Below, one piece after another: positions 17,659 to 62,036 of a stretch of DNA of 64,000 nt. The stretch is from Ascidiella aspersa. Its lineage: Eukaryota. The translations under genes were made by a program, and so were the position numbers. Position 1 is the stretch's first letter. Each line of letters opens with the position of its first letter. The notes beneath the pieces were generated by a model, which was not told the DNA's origin, did not search any database, and worked only from the letters and a program-made list of their open reading frames with translations. The stretch covers positions 7,998,001-8,062,000 of the forward strand of contig OZ004612.1 of assembly GCA_963924565.1 (NCBI GenBank). The letters are read 5' to 3'.

Positions 17659-20600
17659 TCACTTGTAGTTGGCGTATGTGTCAAACGTTGACAGGTACTC
17701 CAGTATCACAGAATAGATGAACATATAGGAGTTCTAAATGTATTTGTTAGAGTCATGCTGATGAGCTAGGACAGGATGAAGTAAATATAATATTTTACAC
17801 ATACCATATCGCCAACCATGTTAGGTCTCATTTCCCGCAGATCCTTCACGGTCCTGAAGACATCCACTTTGTTCTGAGCTTTCAGACGTTCCAGGATGTT
17901 CACCAGGGCGATGAATGCTCCAGTTCTTTGGCATCCATCGCTGTATTTATTTCGATTAAAAAATCGTATTAGCAAAGAGTGAACAGATTTCCGGTGGTTT
18001 GCAAACAAATTTGACCAAACTTATGCTCGCCGGAGATGTATATATTTAAAATTCAAATAAGTAGATTAGTGGCCGGACATTTTACCTGACACATATAGTA
18101 CATGAATTGACTAAGAAAATAAAAAAAATTAGGGAGATAGACGATTTAGAAGCGTTCAGAGCTGTTGAATTACTTCTAGGCAATTTAAGTGAGTGAATGT
18201 TTTACCTGCAACACACTAACACTCTTCCTTTTTCACGTTTGTTTTGCTGCAGATCTTCCAAAATCTGGATTGCTTTTATCACAGTTCTAGCGCTTGGTGG
18301 CGCTTCAGAGCTTTTCCAGTTCTTTACAAGAACGTAGTTGATCGCTCTTTCCATCTGCAAAAGTTCACCGCGGTTAAGGTGAACGTTTTTGTGTTACTAA
18401 AATTATATGACCGTTGGATCAAATGGCTCATGGTATGAAACTTTGGTAAAGCGCAGTTACCTTAGTAGGAACATTAATAAATTAAATTAAAACGCGGAAT
18501 TTTAGCAACTATAAACAACCGACGCTCGATATTCAACAACAAAAAAATAATACTCCTCTTAAAAAGTGTTTAAAAAAACGTTCCTTTATGCAACGATATG
18601 ATATGCACAGGGCCAGGGCTGCGGAGTCGGTTAAAAATACCCCGAGTCCGACCCCGGTCAAATGTGTGATTTCGTGGTCACAAGTCCCGATTCCGGCCCA
18701 GACTCTACAGCCGGTATTCTGCCAATTTACGTAACTGAAATATTGGGAATATTTAGCAACCAATTTCTAGGCGTGTCGTATAATTCATCCACTCAAAACA
18801 CATAGTTGGAAAATATTCCACCATGTGCTATTCCGCCATTGCAATTTCCAGTTAGCCGTCATATCAGCTTTGAAATTTGGTACTGCGCGTGTGCATGTCG
18901 GACTTGGCACTCGGGTAGTTTTACGTGATCTTACTCGATTCCCGAGTTCGACTCCAGCAAAACAAACCAACTCATTGAGTCCCGAGTCCGACTCCGCAGG
19001 CCTGCACAGGGCCCGCAATCACCAAATTCAAACGTGAAAAAATAAAACGTCGATAAAGGGGGTGTAACAAAAAAAACTTCATAAACTACGAAAACAACAT
19101 ATGACCTTGATTGCCCCTTTGACCTCTACTCGCAGAATCTTGTGCGACATGTCCTCGTTATCGATGCGTGATGTCGCTTGGATAGTGATGCTTCCAAGTT
19201 GAACAGAAGCGTTTTGCATCATTCGAGCTAACCCGTCTTGAAGATTTTCCTAAATTGTTTGATCCAGAAAAATTAAAAGTATGCTTTCAGTTGTTACAAC
19301 AGACAGGTTGATTCTGGCAATTACCTGCAGACCTACGATTACGTCGACTTGTTGCTCGACTGCAACTTTCCAAAACTGCTGTACCCCATCACGGGTTGGC
19401 TGCCGAGACGCTATAAAATCCGTTGAGCAGCCAAAGTCCTACAATAAGGGTTTTTATATAATTTGTTTAACTAGTCTTAACATTAGATTGATTTGAAATG
19501 TTGCATGATTTAACGTTTCTTGAAGTCGAACTTACACAAGATAGCGACACACACACATTCCTGTAGCATTATAAAATACCTACTGCATTCAGATCGATGG
19601 TCTTAAGTTAAATCAGCTGCCTACAATCAGGGTTATTATGCAAGCATGACAAGGGTAAGCAACTCTTTACCTGTATGAATGAAGCATCGATCTTTTTGGC
19701 AGCTTGGTCTTTATCCGACCAGGTTGAAACTCGAAGAATATCGCCTAAAATTACCAAACAACTTTTTGTTTAGCTAAACATACAATTTGAAAGGTCGCGT
19801 ACGAATCGTCGAGGTATTGGCTTACATTTTTTTTGGTCGACAACTAGAGCTTCTGAGAGAAGATTGAATTCTTCAGATTCAGTTTCTTGTCTACGCAGAA
19901 ACATATGTTTTAAAGTTACACGACCAGTAATTATTAATAAGGCTAGAAACGTACAACTCATCTTCATTCATTGCTTGAATGTCGGCGGGTGCCCGATCGA
20001 AGTCGGCAAACAATTCATGCTCAGTAAGTATCCTCTGAATGAACATGAACTGGTCCTACGGAAACGAGCGCGATTCTGTTACGTTATGCTTTTTAGACTG
20101 TTTATACCGAACACCAAACTAATAACCTACCACATTCTGAACCATGTCAGTTCGGTTTTCTCTCATCCTGGACACTACAGCAGAAACGTCGATGTTCTCT
20201 TTAGCATTCAGTTGGTCTATTAGAGTATCTATTGCGATATAGGTTCCTGTGCGTCCAACTCCAGCACTGTAAAACACAGCACATTACGTTTGACTTAATA
20301 AACGACCTACAGGGCGGTGCAAACTTGGTCAAAGCACCTGCAATGAATAACTAGTGGCTTTGACTGGTCTTCAACTTCCTTTACCATTTTTCTCAGATAA
20401 ACCATTTTTGTTGTTGTCACTGGTATCCCGTGGTCAGGCCAGGTGGTGTATTGGAAGTGAACCACACTTAAGCAACTCTAGAAATTCCGGGAACCAATTT
20501 AATTGTAAAAAATATGTTATTTTAGCAAAGCCCGCTGTTGTAGTTCAATTGAAAACTGAAAACAAACATAGAACATCTAACATCAAAACCGGCACCTGTT

Positions 20601-23600
20601 CCATTTTTAAGTCAAATGTTCTCAGAATTATTCCTCCAACGTCAGTTTCTTGCTTCAAACTAACAAGTACCATTCCGTAGGCTTCTTCTTTTCCCAAATC
20701 GGGCCAGTATTGGTCGCACTTTACCTGCATAATAAACGTAAATTAACTGAACATAATTCTGAAGGAAGACAAACTTTTATTCAATTGCTGCTCGTATAAA
20801 ATGTATACTTGAATGCATAGAGAAGCTTGGAAATCTATTGATGCAATGCTACATATATTTTCCCTTCGCTTATCGGTATGCTTTTATAGTCATGCAAAGC
20901 AGTTTTTCCTTGTGGTGTTTTGCGTTGCGAGAACAAACAAAAATAAAATTGGAGTTGAAAATCCGTAATTGTTACGTAGGCGGTTTAAGTATAGCTTTGT
21001 AAATGGCAACAGTCGATACACAACAATTATTAAAAAAGGCCAGGCAAGTTCAATAGGTGGTTACCCTGATCGACATTTGGTGCAATTACTCAATCCTACC
21101 TTTCCATTCTCCTTTAGTTTAGTCAGCATGACAATCACCGAAGCTTGTTGCTGCCAAACCATTAACCAAAAGTCGCCAAATGTGTTTGGTTTTGGGCCTT
21201 GGGTGGCAATGAACTTTTTTTCGTTGCTGTACCCCTGGAAAATTAAAAAAACGCACACATAACAAGAACAATATAATTTGCCACAGCCATGTTTTGACTT
21301 TAATCAATGGCTCAACTGGAGCTCCGGTTCTTATGTTTTGTACAAACCTCGTTGTCCCTAAATTTACAAGCACGTCACTGTCGCTATACAGAAGGATTTC
21401 TTACCGGCATGTATGATGCATTGATGTAGTCGTCTTTGTCTTTTCCAGACAAAATAACTCGGGAATGATCATCTGAAAGAGCAATATGGACTAAGGCAGT
21501 GCTCTTCAACCTTTTTGGTTTAGTGAACCCTTAAAGTTTTTGTGAAAAACTCATGCACCTTATACACTTAAAAGTTAAACTGAGGTAAAAAGTAATCTAA
21601 ATAATCATTATGCTTAACAATTATCATGTTAATTAAACCGACGGAGCGGCCGTTTTTTACACACTGTCGGTGAGGGTTCGATTATGGCTGCAAGCTGCTT
21701 GCGAGTACTATTGCATGCCATAAAACCGCATTCGGTGTTAAATATTAATATTTCATTAAAAGTTTGTGATGCACCCTTGTATGCCTTTTCGTACTAGTGC
21801 ACCCCATGCATATTTTGGTTACCCTAGGGTGCACTGTGCACACCGGTTGAAGAGCACTGGACCAAGATATTGTAAACTACACACTTAAACGACTTTGATG
21901 TCTTCCTTACATGTGATGATGTTTTTGTATCTGTTTCTTGGTGCATTATGGTCCGACGCAGCTTGTTTGCAACTCTTTGGTGTGCTTTTATCAATTCGAA
22001 CTATTTCCTGCGATGTTTAAAACACAATAAATAACCGCTATAAATAAGTTAATGGTCTGTAATGCTACGTATACGTCAGTCGAAAATATAGATATTGCAG
22101 TGTAATATCAAAAATGTACATTTGAGGTTTAAATGCTTTAAGCTACCTGGAATTCCTTACGAAATATTGATCCATTGGCTGCTGATTTATTTTCGAATAT
22201 ACTCTTGAGTGTCTTTGGATTCTTCAAAACATTTAGGTTTTCATACAGTACTTGATTCCCACCGAGAACACCTTTTCGAGAAGATATACACAAGTTACAT
22301 TTGCAGTGTATTTGCTTTCAATTAAGCTATTTAAATCGCACCTTTGCTTGTTGAAGTGACATTCCTGACATTTACATACACTTTTTCCTCCTGGTTTATA
22401 GCAATCTATTATTATAAAGACAAAAGCGCACGGAAAATGAATGCATTACGGTTGTATATATGAGCAAATGCAAAACTATCTACTCAAAGTTTTTTTTTAA
22501 GCTATATTCAAGCTCGTGTATGTGCGAACAATCCACTAGTTATACCTTGGATTTCGTATTCATTGCCTGAAGATTATTGCTTCCTGCTTCTGTCTGGCTG
22601 GAATTGCCATTTACCTCAATAATGTCTGTTTAAAACGAAAAACAAAATTACATTATAAAGTTTCGAAAATTACATTTTAAGTTTCACTTGTAAGAAAATC
22701 ACAACGCTTACTGTCATTGTTTTCCTTTTTTCCTTCCTGAAGTCTATATAAATGGTTATAGAGAAAAGGCAGGTTAAAAGAGGCTAGCACATGTGTGTTT
22801 GAGTTATATATATATTCCATAAATATAGGCCTACCTTTTGCGTAGTACGATTCCAAGAACAATCAAAAGTAAAAGGCTTAACAACGCTCCAACTAATCCA
22901 CCTGTAAATGACACATGGACTTGTATTATTTCTTTAAAAGTCACGAGGCAAATTTGCAACCGGAAACAAGCAATGATGTTTTTGTTAGATCGTTTGTTTT
23001 ACTACACGGGATACTATTTTTCAGTATTTAATATGAAATACGGTGTTTGAGTGAAGGGTAACGTACCAACGATTCTACCAGTCGAAGTGTCAGTACTTTT
23101 TAAAGGAAGAGGCTTGAAACAAAATCCAGCGACTTGCGTTTGTTGACTTCCGCCCTCGCAAGAAAACGCCTGGATCTAAAAGGACAAATGCAGCATACAA
23201 AATAGTGCCTTAATAACGGTTGACCCTAATAAGAACTAACTGTTAGGCTTATGTTTTTTCCAGTTGAATGATTTGAAACATCGATCATATAGCTATCCGC
23301 AAAGGAAAATTCCTTGTGTACGTCCACAACTTTTCCACTTGCTGCTGTAATCTGTATTTAAAGAATAGTAATTATCATAGTGGATCGCAGTTCAGTAAAC
23401 ACGTCATTTTGAAATTCCTTACGTATTAGTCTCATCATTTGTAGAACTTATTAAGTCAAATTCAAGTCTTTTCAAAACTTAGTTCAAGTCATCAGTTGCC
23501 CAAGTCAAGTCATTTTGAGAGCAAGTTAATTTCAAGTCAAGTCATTGGTATTAAAATAAAACTTTACACTATTAAAATTGGTAAACAGGTCCGAAAATAA

Positions 23601-26600
23601 GAGATATATCAACTAATCAAATAACAAAATCTCATATAACAAAGTGATTGCTTCACGTACGCAAATTGGGATGAATAATGCAATTTTATTAAAACAAATT
23701 TAAAGAAAACTCTTAATTTAAACCCGAAGTTATTTGGCACAATGAAAGTCCAAATCAATTCATATTTCGAAAAGACTTAGGCTAAGTCAAGGTATGTCAA
23801 GTCATTTGAAAACATCGACTTAAGTGCACTTAAGTCGAGTGAGTAAATGAATTAAGTCATTGCAACACTGGTGGAGCGTCATAACTTGAAAACGCACATC
23901 ATAAAACGCACTTTTGGCTATCACATTAGATTACCGCGTATGAAGTGATGTTCTTGTTTGTCGATGATTTATTAAAAGCCACAACACAGGGCTGCTGTGA
24001 CTTGACGTAGGCGTTAGTGACTGGATCAGGTTTCCCGTATCCTGTTGTGACTTTGTTGCTTGAAGTAAAGGAAAAGGAGCCGCAGCCGGTTAAAGAAGCG
24101 TTGATCTGACAAAACAAGTAACGCTTAAAAGAAAATCCCACCTGGCGAGTTAAAGCGAAATCACCTGTATTTCATATACGGTACGTTTCTTCAATCCGCC
24201 AACCGTCAAACTCGAAACTGTTTGATTAAAAGTTTTTACTAGAATGCTCTGACCATTTTGCGAAACCGAAACCTAAAAACAAATCATGTCACAGTGTGAT
24301 GTGCTATGCTTGAGGTTTTGCTTTACGCTGTACGTCATTTAAATTTTCTAAACTCTAGCAAATAGCTATAATAATGTGTGTTAGCAAATACAGTGAGAGG
24401 ACTATGCAGAAACTATAACAAAGAAAAAGTTAATATGACAGTGTAAGATACAACGTCACAATGATAAATTCTTTGGAGTCATTACACTTATGGACAGTGA
24501 TTTACTTTTATTTACACCTCTATAATACACTATAATATTTTCGCCCTGTATAGTTTTTTATCAAAAGGGTGCTTTACAATTCGAATTACAAGCTTCAAAA
24601 CGAAGTGAAACTAAATGAAAATAAAAAGCAACTATGCACGCATAATATTTTAAAATACGAAAATTTGTCATGGGCCTTACTTTTAACTGATAAATAGATC
24701 CTGTTTTCTTGGCTAGTGTAGAAATGTCGTTTGACCAGGTGACGTTAATCACAGTGGAATTACAGTCCTTCAGTATAATCCGTGTAGACACTAAACAAAA
24801 GTCAGAAAAAGCGCAGGTAGTTAACATTTGAGCCAAGTTTGTAAATACAGAGTGTATAAAAAATTGGCGCTAACAGTTCCAAATTGACCCCTATTTGTTA
24901 AACGGATCTTTTTCACTGATGAAAATGCCATCGCGGTGTGGCAAATAACAAGTTAGCAAATATAAAAATCTATCAAGCATCACCTGAAATATGATAACAT
25001 TTTACTTTTTATTTCTTCGAATTTAAAAAATGTAACATTACAGCTCTCAGATAAATTTAATCCAGTGATTCTTAACCTTTTATCGCTTATGACACCCCTT
25101 AAAAAATAAAAACTATGATTTTCAGCATCCCCACTGAAATTTTCTTTGAGTATTTTAGTAATATACTCTGAATGAAACTTTAACAGCACAAATCAACTTA
25201 TTAAATAAACACACCATGCCTTCTAAATGCGATATAACAACAAACCTAAATATCTGAGGTCATTTGTGGATTGCTTATCTCAATTTTCGCGAATGCCTAA
25301 TGTTCGGGGTCCATTGGAACACGAGGAGATGCACAAAATTACACCACTGTATGTAAACGTATTGCAATTTTATAAGGTATATAGCCTATACTTACGTGTT
25401 GGTCTTATTTCACACGAATAGTAGGCGAGTTGCCCCGAGCAATTTCTATCTTCTAGATCTTTCATTCCATACGAGAATGCTTTCTGTTTGCATTTGAAAG
25501 GGTTATTGGCAAAGTTAGCATTTTGACCATCGCTCCAAAGCCACTGTTTGGAATTGGTGTTGTATCGCGCTCCCACAAATACGCTCCTCACTATTTTAAA
25601 CGTTAACGTATTAAATGTAAAGGGTTCTGGATGCAGAAAAAAATAGTTCACTGGACGGTTGACTGAATTTCTGGGAAAATCCTTTTCCAAATCCCTATAT
25701 TATAGGCGAGAATAAAGTGCATGAATTGAAATGCGTACCTGGAACGTTAAAATTGCCACTTGATGTATTAAACCCATCGAAAAAGCGATTTACATCAGTC
25801 AATCTGCTTGAATGTGGATGGAAGCTTCTAAAGAAATTGTAAATCGTTTGGTTATCAGCAGCTTGTGATTTCCATGCAAACAAACCAAAGTCGTTAGACC
25901 ATGCTGAAAAAATATAAAATTTTGCGATGAAATTTGTTCTTAACTTTAAAAGTCGAGGTTTCTAATCATTTAATCATATAACCATAGTTGGCCGTGACGC
26001 ATTAGGTACGATTCTGGGGAAAACTGTTTCCAGTTGCACTAAACGAAACATACGATTAATCAGTAAATTACGTCACGGTTGTAAATCTCAGCAACATCTG
26101 ATAAGCAGGTTCCGAAAAGGCTTTTAAGAAAGCTTATGCAAATAAAATGGTTACATTTTAATTAGAGATATTTGCTTTTTAGACGTTCAGATTCTAAATA
26201 CAAAATTACTAATGGAAATATATTTTTTTTGCGTTAAAGTGGTGACATCAAATTCAATATAAATCGTAACTAAAGATCGATATAGGACCATAAAATAAAT
26301 TATTTGACTATAATTTCCTGTGGAGTTGTCGTAGGCCTACACTAAAGACAATTTGTGCACATGGAAAATCACGCACAATTATAGAGTAATATACGCAAAC
26401 ACTTACATTCGGAAGTTGGGCAACCGTTCTTTATTATTCCGCTTTGTGATTTTTCTCCTTGTGTCACAACCCTCCATCTTTCGCTATGATATTGGCAAAA
26501 GTAAACTGCTATCCTCTGTGCATTATCACTGAAAATTAGTTATATATCGTAGTGTTGATTATGGTGTTTTGTAATAGGAGTTAATCAGCAAAAGATACCG

Positions 26601-29399
26601 TTTTTTGACGAAAATGTTTGACATATATACAAAAGTGCAATTATGCACGTTTATTGGGAAAGATATTTAATGTAGCAGGGCAGCTCTGCTGTGCGCATGT
26701 CTGTATATGAGCAATGAACTATAGTAGATTTAAACGCACCTCAGATGCGTATAGCTTAGGATTGTTGGATCTAAAACATTTTCTCTCGCCTTATAGCCTA
26801 TTAGCCATGATTCCGTTAAGAACTACAGCCCGTCGTTTATCAACTGAATGTAACATTATAAACCAATGTATCATCGTGTTACTATACTTAACATTACGAC
26901 CGCTTCAACTTGTGACAGAAAATATGACATTCTCGTACGCTGTTTTAAATATTGTATTCTCGTACACTGTTTTGTATAGGCCTAAGACATTCTCGTACGC
27001 TGTTTGCCAATAGATGAGTGACACTCCCACCCAGGTTTTCTTAAGGTTTGGTTTGGGTGACCGCTAAGTAGTTTTAAGAGAGCGCAAGTGTTTCATTTAA
27101 ATACCAAAAAGTTGCAAGTTCGTTTAGGTCCCCCAAAACACCTTAAAAAAACACTGCTCCCACCAACTACAGTTTTACACCATGTTTAATATCCAGGTTG
27201 TTTCCTGATGTAATTTTATTGCGAGAAGGCTACCACCTTATTTTTCCGCCAAAGATTACCACGATGCAATCCGATACCAAATAAGGTCATGACTAAGCTC
27301 AAACAAGCAAAACACATAAAATAGAAACGTCATCTATTTTTCCAGATTATAAGACATTTGATTTAGCGCTACGAAATTTAGTTGACTAACGTTAATATTG
27401 CTGGTTTTTGAAAAATATAGTCTTCAAGTTATAGAAATCGCTGGCTTGGATCGCAAATCATTATGACTGGAACTCCTATATTATTTGGTATCGGGTCGGC
27501 ACCGATATGAAACTATCGAGCGAGTACCGATACCACCCCTTGGTAGCGGCTATCGGCCCCGATACGATAATATCGGACATATTCGATTATGTTGACCATT
27601 TGTTGGGTGTTTAAAAAACAGCTACGTGACCAGTTAAATGATAGATGAAGTATTTTTAATAAACTCTCACGTTTTGTACAGGTCCAAGTACCAGATTTGA
27701 TGAAGTTCTTTCGCACTCTTCCAATTGCCAGTTATCGCTGAATCCTTCGAGAATTTGTAAACTATTCTCTGTTGGGGAGGTGTGCTCTTATCAGGAAGAT
27801 AATCGTAGAAGATGTAAACTCTTTGTAGATCTTGGCAAAATCAAGCATGTACTATTTTTTATTTTAATAAAACATCTAAAACCGCATGAAAAAGTTTTTT
27901 ATTTAAAAAAGACATACTCATTTAAAATATCAGTTTTATTGGTTATTAACTTCGACAACTATGGTTTTAAAACGAAATATTAATAATGTAACGTTTTTGC
28001 ACACTTTGGACTACAGATAGACTTTATAAATAACCATTTAGCGTTGTAACGAGTGGAAGATATTATTGCATACAACATTGTACCAGTAGTAGGTCTATAA
28101 GACTCTATATCAGTGATTCTCAACCGCGGCTCTCAACTGTACATTTTTCGGCTCTCACTAACGGAGTGAAAAATTAGTTAGCAGTAGCAGAATTGCAACA
28201 AAGGAAGTAAAAGAAATTAAAAGTGAATGAATTTGATCAGCAAGGATCCCGAGTACGAAGTACTAATGTTCCCGGGTACTTCCGTCCGGCTCTTTAAAAT
28301 AATTTTGTGGTTTGTGACGTCATAATATATTTAGTCTTGATCGACAAGCTATGGCAATAAGAAACAATTATATGCCTACTGTTGTTTTTATGCGGCTCCT
28401 TGCAAACTTTATAGGTTTGAAATGCGGCTTAGGCTCTAAAAAAGGTTGAGAATCACTGATCTATGTGCTACAAATACTTACCGCCAAAAAGAGAAAGGTT
28501 ATGCGTTTCGCTTCAATTCCGTTGCCGGATCTTACCTGTATTATTGTACTTCCGCAAAATCTCCTGGTAAAACTTATCTTTGACAGCTTGATCTTTGACA
28601 ACAGCAAGTTGCCCGCCCAACAACTTGCACTCATTACTTGCCGTGTTCGCATCCACGATCGTATCAGATAAAGTGTAAATGGTATTTCCCACTGCGAACA
28701 TCGTAGGACTGCAAGCTGTAAAGTCATACAAGTGTGGTAAGAAAAAACACCTTTTAAAAAGTTGGACATATGTGAAGCTAAGTGGCTAAAGGTAGTCAAC
28801 GCAACCATTAACATCCAAAAAATGATTCTACCGCGAATAAGAAAAACCGCTATCTTATCGCTACCCATTCGAGCCGCATTTTACCGTTTAGCATCTCGTA
28901 CTGCTCATATGTATTTTTTTCCCTTCCTCCACTTATTTGCGCCGCCTACTCATTTATCCCAGTCGTGTTGCCTGCGAGGCTGTAGTGCTTTTCATTGCGT
29001 TTTTCAGTCTATTATCATGTTTTAATATTTTATTGTTTACTTTTATTGGTTGGTTGATGCCTGCGCTCTGATTTTATTCATTTGATTTATTTATTTGTAC
29101 TCTTACAGGAACTGATGATGCCACTTGGCGAAATATATTTTCCTTTAAACAAAACGTCTGATCCTGTTTTTACTCATGTTTATAACTATGAGTTTTACTT
29201 TTTAATGTGGTAAGAAGTTTGGTAAACTGTTACTTTAGGCGCCTTATAGACCTTAGTAAAAAGCTGTAACTAACTATACTTTTTTCAAACAATTTTATAT
29301 CTATGTTTATATAATGATTGTCATTAGTTGCTACTAACCTGTAGCTTGGCAAAAGCCACATAAACATATTAACGCCTCCAGAAGAATCGTAAATTGCAT
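17659..29399 (-). CDS. Receptor-type protein tyrosine phosphatase (copy A): signal peptide, 2 C-type-lectin-like domains, 2 FN3-like domains, TM, D1 (active) and D2 (degenerate) PTP domains; about 30 exons
   Basis: Exon 1 [20 protein letters not shown] (29339-29399). CTLD-like exons [15 protein letters not shown] and [35 protein letters not shown]3-like INVTWS and [43 protein letters not shown] (~22834-22901). D1 has [66 protein letters not shown]2 has [11 protein letters not shown] and [18 protein letters not shown]. Ends FDTYANYK* (TGA 17659-17661). A few D1-D2 linker exon boundaries are uncertain. Confidence 0.9.
18614..19004. mobile_element. hAT-type MITE (CAGGGCTGCGGAGTCG family) in a D2 intron of copy A
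   Basis: Ends cagggctgcggagtcgg / ccgactccgcaggcctg; perfect 8-bp TSD cacagggc (18606-18613, 19005-19012). Confidence 0.9.
21497..21859. mobile_element. hAT (Charlie-like) MITE
   Basis: TIR cagtgctcttcaacc / ggttgaagagcactg; 8-bp flanks gactaagg/gaccaaga. Confidence 0.8.
28111..28458. mobile_element. hAT (Charlie-like) MITE
   Basis: TIR cagtgattctcaacc / ggttgagaatcactg; 8-bp flanks ctctatat/atctatgt. Confidence 0.8.
29107..29144 (+). ncRNA. Minimal type I hammerhead ribozyme motif, probably in a Penelope-like LTR remnant (~28860-29200)
   Basis: aggaa-CTGATGA-t-gcca.ct.tggc-GAAA-tatatt-ttcct: stem I aggaa/ttcct, short stem II, palindromic aatatatt stem III region. Confidence 0.6.
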
Positions 29400-34752: not shown

Positions 34753-37700
34753 ATGAAATTTGTTATTGGCTTTGTGGCAGTGCTTTGTTTATCATCATTT
34801 TGCGAAGTTACAGGTTAGTAAACATAGAATAAGATGTATTATTGAAATAAAGAGGTCTTAAGCGATACCCTTACAACGCATTGTATTTTCGATACAATCA
34901 AAGAGTAATTATGCTAGATTAGGAATTGTATATTTTGTTACAGAAAATGTTTCTAAACAAAAAAAAAGTTATTTGTTAAATATGCCATTTTTTATTCTTA
35001 TTTAGTCGATTTTTTTTCTGACATTTTTTTAAGAGACTATAGACTGCCAAATGAGCGTGCACTGTGCAGCCAATATTAAATAAAAGGGTTAATCGATTAT
35101 TCCCTATAATTTAAACAGATGGTACTGATCATGTTGACAATTAATTTACCAACCACCAAATTACACCTATGCCCTAAATGTGAAATATCTATACAGCATG
35201 CAACACTACATTGTTCAATGTTGGGACCACGATTTACACCTTATCCAATACACTCGTGGACGCGAACACGGCAAATAATGAATGTAAGTCGTTGGGCGGA
35301 CAACTTGCTGTTGTCAAAGATGCAGCTGTGATGAACAAGTTCTACCAGGAGATATTACACAAATACAATCAGCCAGGTAAGATTCACTAGCACATTTTCC
35401 CTGAAAAATGATGACTCATACCTGATAATGACTCATTACTCATGCTGTTGCGGCGTAAAATCTTAGTGCAGCGACTGCTAACCAAATACCTAAGTTAGGC
35501 TATAACAGGGCCACAAGAAGAAGAATGGTATCATAAAGAAAACTATAAATTATTTAATCACGTAACTTCCCAACCAGCAATCAAATGTTACTCCTATATG
35601 TTTTAATAGTTGTTCTAATTACAGCACCTATATGATTAATACGAAGTAAGGTATCTCGTGTGGCAATATTTAATTTATAGTTTTAACTATATGTCCTACA
35701 ACGTCTAACTTGACCGTTTTTTTTTAGTTTTTACCGTTTAACGAAAATAAGTCAATAAAGCTCTACGAAAAATGTTGTATCCGGATCGAAAATTTGGTGA
35801 CACCTAGTTTACAGAACGGTAAACAATAGCGGTTATAGCTACTGGAGTGAACAATAGGCCAATGTAAATACACATTTTGGTGTTCTTCAACAATGAACTT
35901 ACAAATGTTTAAATGGCTAGAAAATTAAAATTTAGGGAAATTATTTTGGCATTTTTCTGACCGCCGACCATCCAATGGCTTTCATTATTTTGCTACCAAC
36001 CATCCTGTAGAGAAAACATATTTTACTTAATTTTGTCACCCGATTCGATTTGTTTTCAACGCTTGTAGCGTTCGTATTAGGATAATTCGGGGCTTTGAAG
36101 CGTCTGTGTTAGAACATGTGTTAGAAATTAGACGCTTTAAGCGGACCGTATAAGAACAGGAAACAGGCGAACAGCGAATACGCAGACTAATCATGCATAA
36201 CGAAACGTTGCCAAGCGATGCAGACTATAGATTTTTTGTCTTGTACAGTTTTGGATATTAGAAATGCAGAAAAGTTTATAGCTGTACCAAGTTAATGCGA
36301 TGTTTGTAATTTTACCCAGTAAATAGAAGGTTAAAAGCTTTTATTGTTGCTAAAGCCTACCTTATTAGCGAACATTATTTGGTTTAGGGTGCGGGTTTGT
36401 GTATAAGTTAAGCAATACTAATTAATAATAATACTTGAACCACCCTTACCCCAGCCTGGAAAGTATAACAGAACACGCGGGTGCACTGCCGAAAAAAATC
36501 GCGTGACTAGGTGCAACAAAGTTAAAAAAGGGCGCTGGTCTAGAATCCTACCACATTTTAAATCAACGCACAATATTAGGGTTAGGGATGGCGAGAGTTA
36601 GTGTTTGGGTGTGGGTGGGTCAAGTATTCTTATGTTTATTTTTAACCCTAACCAAAATAATATGCGTTGTGGTAGGAATTTAGACCAGCACGAAAAAAGT
36701 GCATCTCTGGTCTGCTTTCAAATTTTCAGACTTCCATGTTATGATTTTCTCAGGCACTCTGTATTGCATACATTGCACTGTAAACATAATAGGGTGCACA
36801 AACGTTTTACATGTTTAGGGTGCAGTTTAGATTTTTTTCTCGGTGCACTTGCCATACTTTCCACAGTGGCCCCCACCCAAACAGTCCAGCGCCAATACTT
36901 TTATTGTTGCTAAAGCTAATAATGCTGTTTCTGGCTATTGACTTTCATTCCGAAGTTTTAGTAGTTAAAAGACAATGTTATTTACAATGCTAGAAAATAT
37001 TAGTTGTAGATAATTTACTTCATTATAATAAACTTAGTTAGCAAATAGAGGAATCAGGTGGCACTGTATAAAGACAAATTGTATTTGATTCTCGACAAGC
37101 TTTTGCACAACCGTGCTTCATCAGGTCAAATTGATTCTCGACAAGCTTTCGCACAACCGTGCTTTATCAGGTCAAAATGATATACAATTTGTCTTTATAC
37201 AGTGCCACCTGATTCCTCTATTTAGAATTAGACAAATACGGCCATATACAAAGATTAGTTAGCAAAATATATGCCAAGGAATATTAAATTAGATAAGAAG
37301 ACCTTTGTTTTGCAACTCATTTTCTAAAATTTGGTCACCATTATAATGTAAAGTAAGTCCTAGGTAGTATACATGTTTTAAATATTATAAATTGAAGCCA
37401 ATATTTTGGTGTTAAATTTAACTGTAACAATTGGCTATTGTTATGGTGCATATTGCATCTAGTTTGCATTCTGTGGCAGATGCATACCAAATATTTTTAA
37501 AGCAATTTGTCTGTACACCTCAATAACTAAATTGCACACTTCAGAAAAGGTTGTGTTGCAGTAGGATTTCAAACTTCAGTTATGCCAAAATATGTCTGCA
37601 CATCTGGAAAGTTGGTGATGTACGTCAGATATCTGTGCATCGCACATTCTTTGAATCACATTTTAGTGTAAATTTCAAATTTGTGGCATAAAAATCTTAA

Positions 37701-40700
37701 GGTCCGAAAATATGTTACTTCCTTCTGTTCATGGTGGTCTGAAGGCATACAACCAAACTAATAAAAACTCATGAATATTATTAGCTGTAAAAGTGTTGTA
37801 GTGATCTCAAGTTGACAAAAAATAGCTGCTGCATAAGGTTGCGAAGTTATAGCGAATAGTGCCCAATAAATTTAAATTTCATGTTTCACTACCTTAATTG
37901 ACCTTACTTTTTAACATTTTTGCATTCTTAACTTTTTCCATTAAGGTCATATACAAGTCATGATTTTTAATAAAATTTTGAACTTAAGTTGTTTATTATC
38001 TATAAGCTGCTTTAAGTTTAATATTACAGAATGTAATTAAATATTATCATGCCTGGCCAAATTAATTTATATTTTGTTTTTCATTATTAAAAATGTTTTT
38101 ATTTCCTGAAATAGCATTTTATATAATTCCTAGATGTAATATTTCAGTCAACCCCCAAAATTAAGGACTTTGTAAGGTGAAAGTGCAAGTAAAAAGATGT
38201 CTCTGAAAGTGTTATGTAACCTTTAAATCATTGGAAAAGCTCTCTGCATCAAGTCTACACCCATTTGACAAAGAAACAGCTTCAGTTTCCATCCCAACTA
38301 ACAAACCTTTGTGCATGGAAGTTAGAGAAAAGGTAATTTCCATTCTGTGTGTTGTACATTCCAAAACATTAATGTTTACCAACACTTCCCAACCTGTGGC
38401 CGATGGTTTCCAGGTACCAAACTCGAAAATGTTTTCATAATAATCTTTTATAACAGCGTGGCTAATTTAGTCCACAGTTATTGAAATATGTAACCAATAT
38501 ACAAGGCCTATTTAATAAAAACATGCAAGTAGTTCAGGAGAAATATATGTATATCTAACATATTTAGTATTGTCTAGTGTCGACAAGGGAGTCCAATCAT
38601 CTAACAAGGAGAAACAACTAGCGATGAACTCGTGGCGCCTATGTGCAAAAAATCATACAGTGATGAAGAAAAGGACAAACAATTAAATGTGTAATTATTC
38701 TATACCGGTGGTTACTGTATATTTACCCCCCATCATTTCACACAATCGTTCGTGTTTGGCGCTTAAAACTCCACATGGTAAAATAAACAGATTTGGAAAA
38801 TCATAAATGGCCCATTGATTTGAGTTATAGTTCCTAACAGGCCGTTTAAAATACCCGGAATGCGATAGTTTATTGAACGATTTTATGGACTACGTATGCT
38901 ACATTTATTACGCACCACATTGTGAAATTTTGGAAAAACATATAAATAGTTTCCTGCTTTAGTACATTCTGATTATGTTTTTGTGCCTTGTTTTTAGCTA
39001 TTAGTGCTTTGAATGTGAGTTTAATAAAACAAAAAACAACGGTTATGTGTTCCAGTGTTGGTTGACTCCAAATACTAAGTCCACTTACAAATAACAGTAT
39101 TTTTGTTAGCTGAATTTTACGCATTTTGCGTTTCGCCCTTAGTATCAAAAAAGAGGCCGAACAGTGTATTAAAATAAATAATTTTATTAATTACTACATT
39201 AAAATTATGTCCGTGTTGGGTCGTTCCTTGTTCTACAATTGACGATTAAAAATCAAGCAATATATCCACCGCACAACGCAGTAAATCAAAACGTGAATTG
39301 AGCACACATTTTTGTAGTGGTTTATCGTGATATTTATTGATTCGACCTATATTTGCCCCTATGATTTCGTTGTATCTGGTAGGACTCCAAAGGTCCAGCC
39401 ACAAGATCGAAATATATATTTCGGAATAAAACAAAAATCGCACTAGGACTTAATAATCGTAATAACGTATAAACGGAATATGTCCTAAATACGTCGGAAT
39501 AAGACTTAGCCTAAAATCGATGCCAAAACAGCGGAGCCTTAACAGCGCTGTTCCATCTAGGGTGCCCAAGCGTCGATCCCAAAACAGCCGACGGCCCCTG
39601 ATCGTCCCATACCCTCTCCCTACAGTTTCAGACGTTATTTTGGCCATCAAACGCCCTGTTTTAATGAATTTAGGACTTTCCGGCGGGTATGTGTCTTATT
39701 CAGGCGATTTAGATCTTATTCTGTCGTGGGAATTAGGCCTACTGCGTATTTGGCTTTATTATGTCGTTGGTCTTCTAACTATGGTATTATAGATTTTTGT
39801 GCTTAATGTATTTTTGATTTATAGTAATTATTGTATGTTCCCATCTGATTCCTATAAATCTTTCTTAAATGGTGCCAAGGTGTAATGACTGCTAGCGATG
39901 GATACAATCGTGTTTATACTTTTAATAGCTTACGTTACAACATGTTGGTCACCTCGGACAAACTTCCGACGTCAACCTGGTTATAAAATGGCCATATTTC
40001 TGAAAAAATCCATCTCTTTAGGTTTTAATACTGTTAGCACTGCTGTTTTGAGGCATTGTTTTAACTACGTGTGACGAAACGAAACTAAACAATTATGGTT
40101 TGTTCAATGAGAACATATTTTTGCCTTGCGTCTAAAAGTTCCTCACAATATTTGTCAAAAGTTAAAAAGCTTAGTATTAATGCACATTTCAACATACTAA
40201 ACCATGCCTATTAACGATTTTTATCCTGGCAGCTGCACAGCCGACAATTGTCTGCGAGAGCCTGTGGCTGTTTTAATTCTCATAAACACGTCTTGATTAT
40301 ACCAGTACCCAAAGTGTACTTCGGTTAAAAATGAGTAACTTTTACAATTGTAGAAAATATAAACACAATGATTCTTGTGCGAAAACTGTTTGTTTACATT
40401 TCGTACCTTGTCCGTAATTTTAATTTTGCGCTGACTGTTGCAAAGCTAACTTTCCCACGGTTGAACCTTTTAAATGCCTTTGATCCGAGCTAAGTACAGA
40501 AAAGTTTTTCAAGTTGGAAAATTAAAACTAACACATTTGTGGGAGAAATATAAACTGAGATGTTTGGTAAAACAACAGTTCGTTCAACTCTTTTCGTTTG
40601 GCAGTAATTTGACTGCGCGTTAAAGTTCGCAAAGCTGACTTTTCGCAAAGGGTCGTGCCTTATAAATGCTTATGAAGCGCGCTTAGTACAGAAGCATTTT

Positions 40701-43700
40701 TCAAGTTGGAAAATTAAAAATTACACATTTGTAAAAGACGTCTAAACTGAGATGTTTCGTAAAACAACTGTTCGTTCAACTCTTTTCGTTTGACAGTAAT
40801 TTGACTTCGCGTTAAAGTTTGCTAGGCTGACTTTTCGCACAGGGTTGTGCGTTATAAATGCTTATGAAGCGCGCTTAGTACAGAAGCATTTTTCAAGTTG
40901 GAAAATTAAAAATTACACAATTGTAAAAGACGTCTAAACTGAGATGTTTCGTAAAACAACTGTTCGTTCAACTCTTTTCGTTTGGAAGAAATTTGATTGC
41001 GCGTTGAAGGTCACAAAGCTGACTTTTCGCACATAGTAGTGCATTATAAATGCTTATGATGCGCGCTTAGTACAGGAGAATTTTTCAAGTTGGAATATCA
41101 AAACTTACACATTTGTGGGAGACATATCAAATGAGATGTTTCGTAAAACAACTGTTCGTTCAACTCTTTTCGTTTGGCAGTAATTTGATTGCGCGTTGAA
41201 GGTCGCAAAGCTGACTTTTCGCACATAGTAGTGCGTTACAAATGCTTATGAAGCGCGCTTAGTACAGAAGCATTTTTCAAGTTGGAAAATTAAAAATTAC
41301 ACATTTGTAAAAGACGTATAAACTGAGATGTTTCGTAAAACAACTGTTCGTTTAACTCTTTTCGTTTGGCAGTAATTTGATTGCGCGTTGAAAGAGTACA
41401 CTTTGGGTACTGGTATACTCAAGACGTGTACATGAGAATTAAAACAGCCACAGGCTCTCGCAGACAATTGTCGGCTGTGCAGCTGCCAGGATGAAAATAT
41501 TTAACAGGCATGGTTTAGTATGTTGAAATGTGCATTAATACTAAGCTTTTTACCTTTTGACAAATCTTGTGAACAACAATATTTTTAGACGCAAGTCAAA
41601 AATATGTTCTCATTGAACAAACCATAATTGTTTCGTTTCGTTTCGTCACACTTAGTTAAAACAATGCCTCAATACAGCAGTGCTAACAGTATTAAAACCT
41701 TAAAAGATGGATTTTTTTCAGAAATATGGCCATTTTATAACCAGGTTGACGTCGGAAGTTTGTCCGAGGTGACCAACATGTTGTAACGTAAGCTATTAAG
41801 AGTATAAACACGATTGTATCCATCGCTAACAGTCATTACACCTTGGCACTATTTAAGACAGTTTTACAGGAATCAGATTGGAACATACAATAATAACTAC
41901 AAAGCAAAACCAACGACATAATAAAGCCAAATACCCACGACAGAATAAGATCTAAACCGCCTGAATAAGACACATACCCGCCGGAAAGTCCTAAATTCAT
42001 CGAAACAGGGCGTTTGAAGGCCAAAATAACGTCTGAAACTGGAAGGAGAGGGTATGGGACGATCAGGGCCATCGGCTGTTTTGGTATCGACGCTTGGGCA
42101 CCCTAGATGGAACAGCGCCGTTAAGGATCCGCTGTTTTAGCATCGATTTTAGGCCCTGTTTAGGGTTAGAAAATTGTTTTCAGAGTTGAAATTATTAGAA
42201 GGGTTTGTGATGTACCTACAGGCGGGGTTAGATGAAATTTTGTATAGGCTTGGTTCTTTCATGCAAGTTAAGTCTTATTCCGGACATATTCCGTTGATAC
42301 GTATAGGACATATTGCGTTTATACGTTATTATTACGAGTATTAGGTCCTAGTCCGATTTTTGTTTTTTTCCGAAATATATATTTCGATCTTGTGGCTGGA
42401 CCATTGGAGTCCTACCAGATACAACGAAGTCATAGGGGCAAATATAGGTCGAATCAATAAATATCACGATAAACCACTACAAAAATGTGTGCTCAATTCA
42501 CGTTTTGATTTACTGCGTTGTGCGGTGGATATATTGCTTGATTTTTAATCGTCAATTGTAGAACAAGGAACGACCCAACACGGACATAATTTTAATGTAG
42601 TAATTAATAAAATTATTTATTTTAATACACTGTTCGGCCTCTTTTTTTAATAAGGACGCAACGCAAAATGCGTAAAAATCAGCTAACAAAAATACTGTTT
42701 GTAAGTGGACTTAGTTTTTGGAGTCAACCAACACTGAAACACATAACCGTTGTTTTTTATTTTTATTAAACTCACATTTAAAGCACTAATAGCTAAAAAC
42801 AAGGCTCAAAAACATAATCAGAATGTACTAAAGCAGGAAACTATTTATATGTTTTTCCAAAATTGCACAATGTGGTGCGTAATAAATGTACCATACGTAG
42901 TCCATAAAATCGTTCAATAAACTATCGCGTTCCGGGTATTTTAAACAGCCTGTTAGGAACTATAACTCAAATCAATGGGCCATTTATGATTTTCCAAATC
43001 TGTTTATTTTACCATGTGGAGTTTTAAGCGCCAAACACGAACGATTGTGTGAAATGATGGGGGGTAAATATACAGTAACCACCGGTATAGAATAATTACA
43101 CATTTAATTGTTTGTCCTTTTCTTCATCACTGTATGATTTTTTGCACATAGGTGCCAAGAGTTCATCGATAGTTGTTTCTCCTTGTTAGATGATTGGACT
43201 CCCTTGTCGACACTAGACAATACTAAATATGTTAGATATACATATATTTCTCCTGAACTACTTTGCATGTTTTTATTAAATAGGCCTTGTATATTGGTTA
43301 CATATTTCAATAACTGTGGACTAAATTAGCCACGCTGTTATAAAAGATTATTATAAAAACATTTTCGAGTTTGGTACCTGGAAACCATCGGCCACAGGTT
43401 GGGAAGTGCTGGTAAACATTGATGTTTTGGAATGTACAACACACAAAATGGAAATTACCTTTTCTCTAACTTCCGTGCACAAAGGTTTGTTAGTGGGGAT
43501 GGAAACTGAAGCTGTTTCTTTGTCAAATGCGTGTAGACTTGATGCAGAGAGCTTTTCCAATAATTTAAAGGTTACTTAACACTTTCAGAGACATCTTTTT
43601 ACTTGCACTTTCACCTTACAAAGTCCTTAATTTTGGGGGTTGACTGAAATATTACATCTAGGAATTATATAAAATGCTATTTCAGGAAATAAAAACATTT

Positions 43701-46700
43701 TTAATAATGAAAAACAAAAATATAAATTAATTTGGCCAGGCATGATAATATTTAATTACATTCTGTAATATTAAACTTAAAGCAGCTTATAGATAATAAA
43801 CAACTTAAGTTCAAAATTTTATTAAAAATCATGACTTGTATATGACCTTAATGGAAAAATTAAGAATGCAAAAATGTTAAAAACTAAGGTCAATTAAGGT
43901 AGTGACACATGAAATTAAAATTTATCGGGCACTATTTCCTACAACTTCGCAACCTTATGCAGCAGAGCCTATTTTTTATCAACTTGAGATCACTACAACA
44001 CTTTTTCAACTAATAATATTCATGATTTTTTATTAGTTTGGTTGTATGCCTTCAGACCACCATGAACAGAAGGAAGTAACATATTTTCGGACCTTAAGAT
44101 TTATATGCCACAAATTTAAAATTTACACTAAAATATGGTTCAAAGAATGTACCATGGACAAATATCTGACGTACATCACCAAATTTCCAGATGTGCAGAC
44201 ATATTTCGACATAACTGAAGTTTGAAATCCTACTGCAACCCAACCTTTTCTGAAGTGTGCAATTTATTTATTGAGGTGTGCACACAAATTGCTTTAAAAA
44301 TATTTGGTATGCATCTGCCACAGAATGCAAACTAGATGCAATATGCACCATAAAATTAGCCAATTGTTAAAGTTAAATTTAACACCAAAATATTGGCTTC
44401 AATTTATAATATTTGAAACATGTATACTACCTAGGACTTACTTTACATTATAATGGTGACCAAATTTTAGAAAATAAGTTGCAAAACAAAGGTCTTCTTA
44501 TCTAATTTAATATTCCTTGGCATATATTTTGCTAACTAATCTTTGTATATGGCCGTATTTGTCTAATTCTAAATAGAGGAATCAGGTGGCACTGTATAAA
44601 GACAAATTGTATATCATTTTGACCTGATAAAGCACGGTTGTGCGAAGGCTTGTCGAGAATCAATTAGATCTGATGAAGCACAGTTGTGCGAAAGCTTGTC
44701 GAGAATCAAATACAATTTGTCTTTATACAGTGCCACCTGATTCCTCTATTTGCTAACTAAGTTTATTATAATGAAGTAAATTATCTACAACTAATATTTT
44801 CTAGCATTGTAAATAACATTGTCTTTTAACTAATAAAACTTCGGAATGAAAGTCAATAGCCAGAAACAGCATTATTAGCTGTAGCAATAATAAAAGTATT
44901 GGCGCTGGACTGTTTGGGTGGGGGCCACTGTGGAAAGTATGGCAAGTGCACCGAGAAAAAAATCTAAACTGCACCCTAAACATGTAAAACGTTCGTGCAC
45001 CCTATTATGTTTACAGTGCAATGTATGCAATACAGAGTGCCTGAGAAAATCATAACGTGGAAGTCTGAAAATTTGAAAGCAGACCAGAGATGCACTTTTT
45101 TCGTGCTGGTCTAAATTCCTACCACAACGCACATTATTTTGGTTAGGGTTAAAAATAAATATAAAAATACTTGACCCACCCACACCCCAGATTGGAAACT
45201 TTGGATATTGCGCGGGGGAGATGTTTTGCAGCTGAAAAAATGCGCGGCTGAAAATAAACCACCAGGCTACCGAACGTTGTAAGTTGCGACATTATAATAA
45301 ACTTACAGGTTTACAGCGTTCATAGAATACTTGAAGCACTGAGCAATTTTTGTTTGGTATGCGGGCGCAGCTAAATATTTAAAAAGTTTGACAGTTTAGC
45401 ATTTAATATGCAATATTACTCGTTATTGCCTAATTTGACGTCACTATTCACGTGACCGTTGTCCACTGATGCGTGACCAAAACGCAGAACTGTGCGTTTT
45501 CAGAGTTTCGCAGGGGATTTTATAGGATGCATTATATTATATAGGTCTTATAAACTAGCGTTAAAAAATGTTGTGCAACTTCAGTATGCGGCCCGCCAAT
45601 TTTTTTTGTGCTTGTTGTGTCCCTTGTACCATTTTAGTTGTGCAGGTCTGATTTAAGGTGACACTTTTTCGGTCGTTAATATACTATAGTCGTACACGAG
45701 TGATGAGTGAATAAATGTGACGTCAGTTTTACAGGAGCCATACTAACGTTTCTATTATGTTAATATACTTCTCGTAAATAGTAAAGGTTGTTAAAGTCCA
45801 TATTTATATTTTAGCAGTATTACTCATTTTTAGGTCATTTAGTTTCATACAGAAGTTTGCGCGGCTGAAGTTTTGCGCGTTTGCTCGAGTCAGATTTGCG
45901 CGGCTGAATACATTTTCTATAAAATGCGCGGCTGTGACCGCGGCTGAAGGTGCTACGGCCAAACTTTCCAACCTGGCCCACATCCAAACACTAACTCTCG
46001 CCGCCCCTAACCCTAATGTTGTTCGTTGATTTAAAATGTGGTAGGATTCTAGACCAGCGCCCTTTTTTAACTTTGTTGCACCTAGTCACGCGATTTTTTT
46101 CGGCAGTGCACCCGCGTGTTCTGTTATACTTTCCAGGCTGGGGTAAGGGTGGTTCAAGTATTATTATTAATTAGTATTGCATCGCTTGGCAACGTTTCGT
46201 TATGCATGATTACTCTGCGCATTCGCAGTTCGCCTGTTTCCTGTTCTTATACGGTCCGCTTAAAGCGTCTAATTTCTAACACATGTTCTAACACAGACGC
46301 TTCAAAGCCCCGAATTATCCTAATACGAACGCTACAAGCGTTGAAAACAAATCGAATCGGGTGATTTTGTTCATGCCTATCGAAACCTAAAACTGGATCA
46401 AAAATGACATATTTAGACCTGAAAACTGCAAAACAAGTAATCCTGCTGATATAGGGCCTGGTCATAGAGAAACCTATACCAATTAAGATATTTTTTTCAT
46501 TAAGATCTACAAAGAGTTTACATCTTCTACGATCATCTTCCTGATCGGAGCACACCTCCCCAACAGAGAATAGTTTACAAATTCTCGAAGGATCCAGCGA
46601 TAACTGGCAATTGGAAGAGTACAAAGGAACTTGGGCAACTTTGGTATTTAGACCTGTACAAAACGTAAGTTTAACCTAATTTAAACGAGAGCTGCGGAGT

Positions 46701-60700: not shown

Positions 60701-62036
60701 TGAACTAAATTAAGGAAAGACTGGATGGTTGGTAGCAAAATAATAAAAGCCATTGGATGGTCCGCTGTATGAAAATTGCCAGAATAATTTTCCTAATTTT
60801 TAATTTTCTAGCGTTTCAAACATTTATTAGTTCTTCATTTAATAAATAACAAAATATGTATTCAGATAGGCGTATTGGTAATCGAATTGATCTATGATTT
60901 TCTTAAACGGTAAAAACTAAAAAAAACTTTAACCAAAAAATGTAAGAAGTTTTATCAAATTGTCGTTCTGTATAATTTAATCAGTCAACATTCAAACTAT
61001 TTTATCTTAATTAGGGCAGTTTATCGCCGGCTGACAAAATTAGTTTTGTCACTAAACTGCTCTACGGCGGTTATTTTTCGTCAAGTTGGACGTTTTGTAC
61101 GACATATATAGTTAAAACCAGAAATTTAATACTACCAAACGAGGTACCTTACTTCTTATTGTTCGTATAGCTGTTGAAATAAAAACAACTTTTGCAACAT
61201 TTAGGAATAACATTTGATTTCTGGTTAGGAAAGTTCGAGTTAATCAAATACTTACAGAGTTTTCTTTACGACACTATTCTATTTCTTGTGGCCTTGTTAT
61301 AGCCTAGTTTAGCAATCGCTGCTCTACAGGATTTTGCACTGCAACAGTATAGTGTTGGGTCACCACTCATCAGATATCACCATTTGTCACAGAGAATTTG
61401 CTAGTGAATCTTACCTGGTTGATTGTGTTTGTGTAATATCTCCTGGTAGAACCTGTTAATGACAGCTTCATCTTTGACAACAGCAAGCTGCCCGCCCAAC
61501 GACTTACATTCATTATCAGCCGTGTTCGCGTCCACGAGTGTATTGGATAAGGTGTAAATCGTGGTCCCAATATTGAACAATGTAGTGTTGCATGCTGTAT
61601 AGATATTTCACATTTAGGGCATAGGTGTAATTTGGTGGTTGGTAAATTAATTGTCAACATGATCAGTACCATCTGTTTAAATTATAGGGAATAATCGATT
61701 AACCCTTTTATTTAATATTGGCTGCACAGTGCACGCTCATTTGCCAGTCTATAGTCTCTTAAAAAAATGTCAGAAAAAAAATCGACTAAATAAGAATAAA
61801 AAATGGCATATTTAACAAATAACTTTTTTTTTGTTTAGAAACATTTTCTGTAACAAAATATCCAATTCCTAATCTAGCATATACTCTTTGATTGTATCGA
61901 AAATACAATGTGTTGTAAGGGTATCGCTTAAGACCTCTTTATTTCAATAATACATCTTATTCTATTTTTACTAACCTGTAACTTCGCAAAATGATGATAA
62001 ACAAAGCACTGCCACAAAGCCAATAACAAATTTCAT
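54757..62036 (-). pseudogene. Copy C of the lectin-like/FN3 receptor, disabled or truncated
   Basis: Same 12 exons as B (ATG at 62036, TM exon 54757-54835). Exon 5 has an in-frame TAG at 57397-57399 (TTG in B). Exon 8 has a net +8-nt change from a duplicated gaccacaacat (~55954-55980), giving a frameshift and TAA. Confidence 0.8.
57636..58428. mobile_element. hAT (Charlie-like) non-autonomous element specific to copy C intron 4
   Basis: Ends cagtggtcggcaac / gttgtcgaccccg; ccggtccg subterminal motifs; TSD ccgttggg/ccgtaggg. Confidence 0.8.

Follow-up and report, generated by a model that had tools for sequence, protein, structure and literature searches.

A gene for a receptor-type protein tyrosine phosphatase (PTP) with a lectin-like ectodomain is located on the minus strand at positions 17659..29399 of a 64,000-nucleotide stretch of the Ascidiella aspersa genome (assembly GCA_963924565.1, contig OZ004612.1, positions 7,998,001 to 8,062,000 of the forward strand), which was analyzed as a whole and is called the window in the following. 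Its CTLD (C-type-lectin-like domain) appears to be a single domain that is split into two halves by a conserved insert. We think it reasonably probable that the gene encodes a single-pass phosphatase of an ascidian family, with a split CTLD and two FN3 domains outside the cell, which would bind a surface ligand, act with its first phosphatase domain (D1) on substrates of the Src pathway, and offer three YxN motifs as docking sites for Grb2-type adaptors.

Gene structure

The gene model comprises 30 exons and encodes a protein of 1140 amino acids in a single open reading frame (ORF), from the ATG at 29399 to the stop codon that ends at 17659, and the protein has full-length homology to four proteins of Clavelina lepadiformis (CAK8679923.1, XP_076817985.1, CAK8674403.1, CAK8674408.1). 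All 29 introns have GT-AG borders, and their lengths range from 59 to 1142 nt; the window is intron-rich animal DNA with a G+C content of about 35%. The features of receptor-type tandem phosphatases are present in the order signal peptide, ectodomain of about 480 residues (exons 2-11), single transmembrane (TM) helix, juxtamembrane region, D1, and a second phosphatase domain (D2). The signal peptide is predicted for residues 1-20, based on the hydrophobic N-terminus encoded by exon 1 (29339..29399, minus strand, as all exons of this gene), and an exon of equal size is found in the neighboring paralog A described below. The TM helix at residues 499-517 or thereabouts is encoded by exon 12 (22835..22901) and has a hydropathy peak of 2.93.

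An initial sequence-only reading of this DNA had proposed that the lectin-like ectodomain is joined to D1 and D2 in one protein that ends in FDTYANYK*, and the continuous frame with its 29 regular introns bears this out. The introns from the TM exon to D1 are only 70-140 nt long and in phase. What ties the lectin exons to the phosphatase exons is the unbroken frame, the shortness of the introns, and the alignment of the four Clavelina protein models with both parts; this alignment also indicates that the linkage is conserved. Judged by its sequence, the locus is therefore one real gene for a lectin-fold and FN3 ectodomain together with a D1/D2 phosphatase.

The lectin region

The lectin region was analyzed with a profile of canonical CTLDs, 21 in number, taken from phosphatases of Styela and Ciona. 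The profile was cut in halves, and six sequences of the family served as the query. Exon 2 (28536..28715), which would encode the first strands and both helices and contains Cys22 and Cys50, matched only the N-terminal half (E 2e-9), and exon 6 (25396..25590), which contains Cys263, Cys280, and Cys289, matched only the C-terminal half (E 7.6e-9). Joined to one another, the two exons aligned over 122 columns with profile positions 9-138 of 141 (E 5.6e-15). An unguided MAFFT alignment gave the same picture, as nine of nine canonical CTLDs were split, with the N-terminal half placed on exon 2, the C-terminal half on exon 6, and a long gap between them. Exon 6 also aligned with positions 41-106 of the Pfam profile Lectin_C (E 0.011), and exon 2 had Atlas feature matches to Lectin_C clusters at 0.93, with a family share of 11-24%. 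All twelve cysteines of the ectodomain, including Cys50, Cys263, Cys280, and Cys289, are invariant in the six sequences. Therefore, both halves of a CTLD with the four canonical cysteines are present, but they are discontinuous.

The AlphaFold model of the Clavelina homologue P0048 has pLDDT values of about 75-95 in both CTLD halves and of 33-59 in the insert. Whole CTLD chains could be aligned with this model across residues 32-288, and in the case of NKp80 the alignment comprised 117 of 123 residues, with a Z score of 15.9 and an rmsd of 2.4. We infer that the segments encoded by exon 2 and exon 6 form one folded domain with the disulfide bridges Cys50-Cys289 and Cys263-Cys280, and that a further bridge, Cys145-Cys170, lies within the insert. 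The sequence-only reading had counted two CTLD-like domains, and this count could not be upheld: exon 2 corresponds to an N-terminal half, exon 6 to a C-terminal half, the intervening sequence matches neither, and no CTLD signal above shuffles was found in exons 3-5 that would allow two complete domains in tandem.

The insert of 149 residues is encoded by exons 3-5 (27830-27671, 26528-26407, and 25903-25739, together 25739..27830) and contains the invariant Cys145 and Cys170. The three exons are flanked by phase-1 introns and hence form a frame-preserving phase-1/phase-1 cassette. Against the CTLD profile, scores of 7-10 were obtained for exons 3-4, for exon 5, and for the insert as a whole, within the range of 30 column shuffles (maximum 14-15). 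With regard to known families, the insert has a single, sub-threshold lead, to DUF7023 (PF22894): three of the four Clavelina ectodomains matched it at about positions 26-109 of 185 (best E 5.8e-5, below the 27-bit cut-off), and no match to it was obtained when single exons of the window were scanned. A sequence-profile search of the PDB returned antibody loops as matches to the insert, which were weak and were regarded as chance.

Calcium and sugar binding by canonical CTLDs is associated with the motifs EPN or QPD plus WND. None of these was found in exon 6, neither in the translation nor in the alignment, and since they are missing, the ligand may more likely be a protein than a calcium-bound sugar.

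FN3 domains and cytoplasmic region

The membrane-proximal part of the ectodomain is encoded by exons 7-11 (23067..24790) and consists of two FN3 domains (residues 298-380 and 397-476) and a short stalk. With a profile of 80 FN3 domains of other proteins the two domains scored 21.2 and 17.0 bits, well above the 8.4 bits of the best shuffle (179 of 200 shuffles scored), in agreement with the two FN3-like domains of the earlier reading. A Foldseek search with a low-confidence ectodomain model of a Clavelina homologue returned mostly FN3 tandems.

The juxtamembrane region (exons 13-16, 22147..22743) contains two YxN motifs, at Tyr567 and Tyr588, and juxtamembrane YxN motifs were present in 15 of 16 proteins of the ascidian clade that were checked. 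D1 (exons 17-23, 19955..22007) has the complete catalytic set, i.e., Tyr647 of the pTyr loop, Asp778 of the WPD loop, the signature Cys809-x5-Arg815, and Gln853 of the Q-loop. D2 (exons 24-30, 17659..19890) is degenerate and likely to be inactive, since the WPD motif is missing and the signature loop is altered, and it is followed by a third YxN motif at the C-terminal Tyr1136. Seven of eight scanned D1 and D2 exons matched the Pfam family Y_phosphatase, with one of the seven matches scoring under the curated cut-off.

The C-terminal YxN had been set beside the YANFK end of PTPRA and PTPRE, a Grb2-binding phosphosite, as a sign of this subtype. It does not serve this purpose, because a YxN is present within the last 45 residues of 65 of 124 PTP proteins (isoforms included), among them proteins of a sponge, a coral, a crinoid, and amphioxus. 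The PTPalpha-style tail sits on many invertebrate phosphatases with large ectodomains and therefore does not mark the subtype. Terminal YxN sites are also predicted for R3 phosphatases, according to an excerpt of PMC5336234.

Relatives and subtype

A search with one D2 exon yielded five of 25 candidates, namely three fragments of Phallusia mammillata, which are 79-83% identical over this exon, one protein of Styela clava, and one further fragment. The best Phallusia sequence had 2867 matches among 8000 candidate proteins, and the following counts cover the 120 relatives listed of these. Nine of the 120, eight of Styela and one of Ciona, combine Pfam Lectin_C with a PTP domain, together with Ig, EGF, and FN3 domains. 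In addition, the Fugu gene model PTP-GMC1, a lectin domain and receptor PTP outside mammals, is listed in one table row among CTLD-containing proteins (PMC514892, that row). The combination had been regarded as unusual, but with at least nine ascidian relatives it recurs in ascidians and is already annotated in Styela and Ciona. The proposal that ectodomains have been shuffled in this lineage fared better, as CTLD, Ig, EGF, and sushi domains are found in various combinations on one PTP clade. The four Clavelina proteins (1090-1155 amino acids) align over the whole ectodomain, with E values of 2e-40 to 3e-24 and 25-28% identity, and the identity of the cytoplasmic regions is 37-40%.

Further members of the subfamily were searched for with the alignment of exon 6. 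A word-index search for longer proteins found none among 51 candidates. A full HMMER scan gave 19 matches, of which 17 were single-exon fragments of 72-228 residues that resemble exon 6, and none was a full-length family member; the other two, long repeat proteins, were judged to be chance matches. Two of the 17 fragments (17 of the 19 proteins P0006-P0024) continue into an FN3-like exon. The exon 6-like fragments suggest that the subfamily is multi-copy in further genomes, which are not annotated.

PTPalpha was the best-scoring solved tandem for the homologues, with 395 versus 380 bits for PTPRS in the case of Phallusia P0002, 375 versus 336 bits for PTPRS in the case of Clavelina P0048, and 422 versus 372 bits for LAR in a further homologue comparison; the CD45 and R5 tandems scored below PTPalpha. 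A different Phallusia protein, P0064, scored 881 bits with PTPalpha and 568 bits with PTPRS, and is likely, by sequence, the alpha/epsilon orthologue. Thus, of the earlier description of the cytoplasmic region as PTPalpha/epsilon-like, the similarity stands, as PTPalpha is the best solved tandem, and the subtype does not, as ascidians have a separate alpha-type gene that groups apart. Orthology to R4 is likewise not indicated by the PTP domains, with 881 bits to PTPalpha for the separate ascidian gene and 375-395 for this subfamily, nor by the ectodomain, which is not short, but comprises about 480 residues with a CTLD and two FN3 domains. The alpha-type proteins of Phallusia (P0064), Ciona (P0090), and Styela (P0126) have ectodomains of more than 1000 residues with sushi repeats, and two of them contain PF00652, which we take to be the ricin-type lectin family.

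Phylogenetic trees were computed with rows selected from the 124 PTP proteins, after removal of most isoforms; a tree of 33 rows was calculated carefully and one of 59 rows in quick mode. In the 33-row tree the protein of the window groups with Phallusia (support 100/99), then with Clavelina (100/100), within an ascidian clade of 14 rows (100/100). The ascidian alpha-type genes group with amphioxus proteins (98/99), and the LAR orthologues form a clade of their own (100/100) that excludes the protein of the window. Membership in R2A (LAR/PTPRS/PTPRD) is therefore not supported, and no Ig domain was found in the protein. Taken together, the gene likely belongs to an ascidian-specific receptor PTP family, as far as PTP domain comparison can tell. 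Several points weigh against this placement. The trees contained no vertebrate PTPRA/E, R2B, R5, or CD45 rows, the ascidian clade could be inflated by the long branches that are present, and an approximately unbiased (AU) test did not reject a union of this clade with the alpha-type genes of ascidians (p=0.176). The records of the Phallusia relatives are fragmentary and lack the ectodomain.

Neighboring copies and possible functions

The window contains two further copies of the ectodomain, paralogs A and B, which are carried by an inverted duplication (32511-52215 versus 64000-54741, 72-96% identity). Paralog A (34753..52199, plus strand) encodes 533 amino acids in twelve intact exons, from the signal peptide through the TM helix, and its exons 1-10 have the same lengths as those of the phosphatase gene. 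Paralog B (54757..62036, minus strand) is the inverted copy of A and a pseudogene, in which exon 5 contains a premature stop codon and exon 8 an insertion that shifts the frame. No convincing chain of cytoplasmic exons was found for either paralog in the region 52200-54760, and a tblastn search of the window revealed no PTP exon outside of the phosphatase gene. The similarity of A and B breaks off 16 bases past A's TM exon, close to the junction of the inversion (52215), and truncation by rearrangement is therefore as plausible as a designed decoy. The two copies could represent a true duplication or mis-joined haplotypes. Decayed fragments at about 33400-34290 (minus) and 62500-63200 (plus), which contain stop codons, resemble the last FN3 exons and a TM exon of yet another member of the family.

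The comparison of the ectodomain with that of paralog A gave a pN of 0.22 and a pS of 0.52, with pN below pS in ten of ten exons, a pattern by which the ectodomain is under purifying selection against this paralog. Exon 3, the first exon of the insert, is exceptional (27671-27830 in the gene, 46505-46664 and 60410-60573 in the paralogs). It is 91% identical between the gene and both paralogs, compared to 62-78% for the other exons, and its pS is 0.19 between the gene and A, versus 0.52 elsewhere (P ~2e-4). The low synonymous divergence together with unlike flanking introns suggests gene conversion limited to this exon.

The phosphatase is most likely a type I receptor, the split lectin head of which, together with the insert, would bind a protein on a cell surface or in the matrix. 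Clustering driven by the ligand might tune the access of D1 to Src-pathway substrates, with D2 as a putative regulatory pseudophosphatase, and the phosphorylated YxN sites Tyr567, Tyr588, and Tyr1136 might dock Grb2-type SH2 adaptors, by analogy to Y789 of PTPalpha. The adaptor and signaling steps are modeled on this precedent, since Y789 of PTPRA serves to recruit Src as well as Grb2 and BCAR3/p130Cas; D2 domains are described as pseudophosphatases (both PMC7959691). In evolution, the family would have swapped ectodomain modules repeatedly, the phase-symmetric cassette of three exons may have entered the membrane-proximal CTLD on the Phallusia/Clavelina side, and later local duplications would have left the two ectodomain copies without a phosphatase.

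An alternative that we take seriously, while holding it to be somewhat short of probable, is that the protein is an adhesion- or spacer-type phosphatase for homophilic or matrix binding, not a sensor of non-self or of immune cues, and that the neighboring copies are inert debris. The FN3 stalk and the YxN tail resemble adhesion-linked PTPs (excerpt of PMC7959691), paralog B is broken, A stops near the junction without cytoplasmic exons, and with pN below pS in all ten exons there is no excess of replacements. It is at odds with this alternative that the family is multi-copy and fast-evolving, with varied ectodomains in three other ascidians, and that, as far as the TM exon, paralog A has kept its frame open and lost none of its splice sites. 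At the other extreme, the locus might belong to an undescribed ascidian receptor system of lectin-fold PTPs with a plug-in recognition insert, either a new fold or a permuted CTLD, in which the adjacent copies act as decoys and as donors of exon-limited gene conversion that rewrites the insert; this would be a speculative extension, to which we give little credence.

Alternative layouts of the lectin region

The split CTLD has to be weighed against two other layouts, and several observations count against it. The folds were computed for the Clavelina homologue and not for the protein of the window. There is some circularity in the confident fold of P0048, since seven canonical CTLDs already stood in the split register in the alignment used for it, and AlphaFold models of the four Clavelina ectodomains alone were uninformative in the lectin region (mean pLDDT 36.5). 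A relaxed profile alignment (hhalign) draws two full-length tandem CTLDs, with E values of 3e-7 and 7e-7 and one strong half each. Exon 3 and exon 6 both open with a strand that fits the same, central-strand positions of the CTLD profile, exons 3-4 weakly resemble exon 6 (P 0.048), and the insert region has sub-threshold Lectin_C leads in the Atlas (0.82). Given the shared opening strand and the likeness to exon 6, the insert may derive from a second CTLD that has decayed.

The first alternative layout comprises two diverged CTLDs in tandem, encoded by exons 2-4 and exons 5-6, each of which lacks one canonical cysteine pair. It would accommodate the two relaxed alignments, the opening strand of exon 3, and the Cys...Trp...Cys register that exons 3-4 have in common with exon 6, and all twelve cysteines can be paired in this arrangement too. 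Nevertheless, we consider it rather unlikely, as exons 3-4 and exon 5 have no signal against the CTLD halves that would be expected there, all nine canonical CTLDs align in the split register, and the first and last canonical cysteines are retained in exon 2 and exon 6. The bit scores per sequence were 26-53 for exons 2 and 6 joined, 15-23 for the first unit, 5-26 for the second unit, and at most 1 for the insert.

The second alternative is a nested duplication, in which an internal tandem duplication gave rise to the insert as a CTLD in circularly permuted order, with the C-terminal half preceding the N-terminal half, so that the ectodomain has two lectin-fold units of swapped topology. The start of the insert matches exon 6 in structural position and intron phase, the cysteines that are missing in the tandem layout become partners in the swapped one, and the weak likeness of exons 3-4 to exon 6 would fit as well. 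But a circularly permuted profile scored only 8.5 with the insert, compared to a shuffle mean of 10.3 and maximum of 14.5, the insert in the P0048 model is rich in strands with a single helix and of low confidence, and its only Pfam lead is DUF7023, all of which makes this layout improbable. That the lectin and phosphatase exons are separate genes or an assembly mis-join, for which ectodomain-only copies in the same window might speak, is hardly credible with in-phase TM-to-D1 introns of 70-140 nt and with four Clavelina proteins of the same PTP clade that have this ectodomain as well.

Other elements in the window

Intron 2 of paralog A harbors a foldback element of 10.3 kb (36037-46363) with arms of about 4 kb (89-98% complementarity), a central tandem array of 192 bp, ends of the type CACCC...GGGTG, and a target-site duplication of 7 bp; in paralog B, the site is single and empty. 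Four ORFs scanned from the element or its edge had no Pfam match, and we presume that it resembles Galileo/P-type foldback elements. Introns of the phosphatase gene contain dispersed repeats of 200-340 bp, probably small mobile elements (18706-18996 versus 8788-9080; 23395-23834 versus 10173-10492, 31683-31965, and 59637-59817). Downstream of the phosphatase gene is a multi-exon cytochrome P450 gene (about 8440-15440, minus strand; Pfam p450 in three of three exons scanned), presumably CYP4-like. An RZ-type zinc finger exon is located at 3519-3761 (plus strand; Pfam E 2e-18), which probably forms the 3' end of a gene resembling ZNFX1/RNF213.

Comparison with known systems and significance

The closest known proteins are the four Clavelina PTPs, which share the size, the whole ectodomain with its twelve cysteines, the juxtamembrane and terminal YxN motifs, and the degenerate D2, and form one subfamily with the Ascidiella protein (100/100). 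They differ in that the ectodomain identity is low, as given above, and the CTLD is below the Pfam cut-off, and they are database models without a described function. The nearest PTP domains are those of the Phallusia mammillata fragments annotated as 'epsilon-like' (CAB3265289.1, CAB3265291.1, CAB3265296.1), which are 42-43% identical and the sister group in the tree, but the ectodomain is absent from these records. The CTLD phosphatases of Styela clava and Ciona intestinalis (e.g., XP_077975279.1, XP_077969091.1, XP_078481055.1) belong to the same clade and likewise have one or more CTLDs, an FN3 pair, D1/D2, and YxN motifs. In contrast to the Ascidiella protein, their CTLDs are contiguous and canonical, Ig and EGF domains are mixed in, the insert is missing, the membrane-proximal segment of the ectodomain is longer, and D2 is less eroded.

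Vertebrate R4 phosphatases (PTPRA/PTPRE) have short, unstructured, and glycosylated ectodomains without folded domains. They provide the best-scoring solved D1-D2 tandem and have a similar style of terminal YxN (the tail of the PTPalpha chain 6uzt matches), but the margin of PTPalpha over R2A is small (15-50 bits), and the separate ascidian alpha-type gene has a sushi-rich ectodomain. Receptor PTPs with lectin domains, named 'PTPRLec', have reportedly been described in sea urchin by Byrum et al. in 2006. Searches of the open-licence literature listed no publication on a split CTLD or on this PTP family.

Invertebrates commonly have receptor PTPs whose ectodomains are shuffled, and those with CTLDs are present in ascidian annotations; the fusion of a lectin domain and a phosphatase alone is therefore modest news. 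The novelty lies in the CTLD that a conserved insert would split and in the copies that lack a phosphatase. A lectin-fold domain split by an insert of three exons is missed by standard Pfam calls. It would be a plain example of a CTLD with another domain inserted into it, and its 149-residue module lends itself to structural work. The family is a candidate for a cell-recognition receptor family in tunicates, and if the extended view of decoys and conversion donors were true, it would represent a paired, diversifying family of self/non-self receptors in the sister group of vertebrates.

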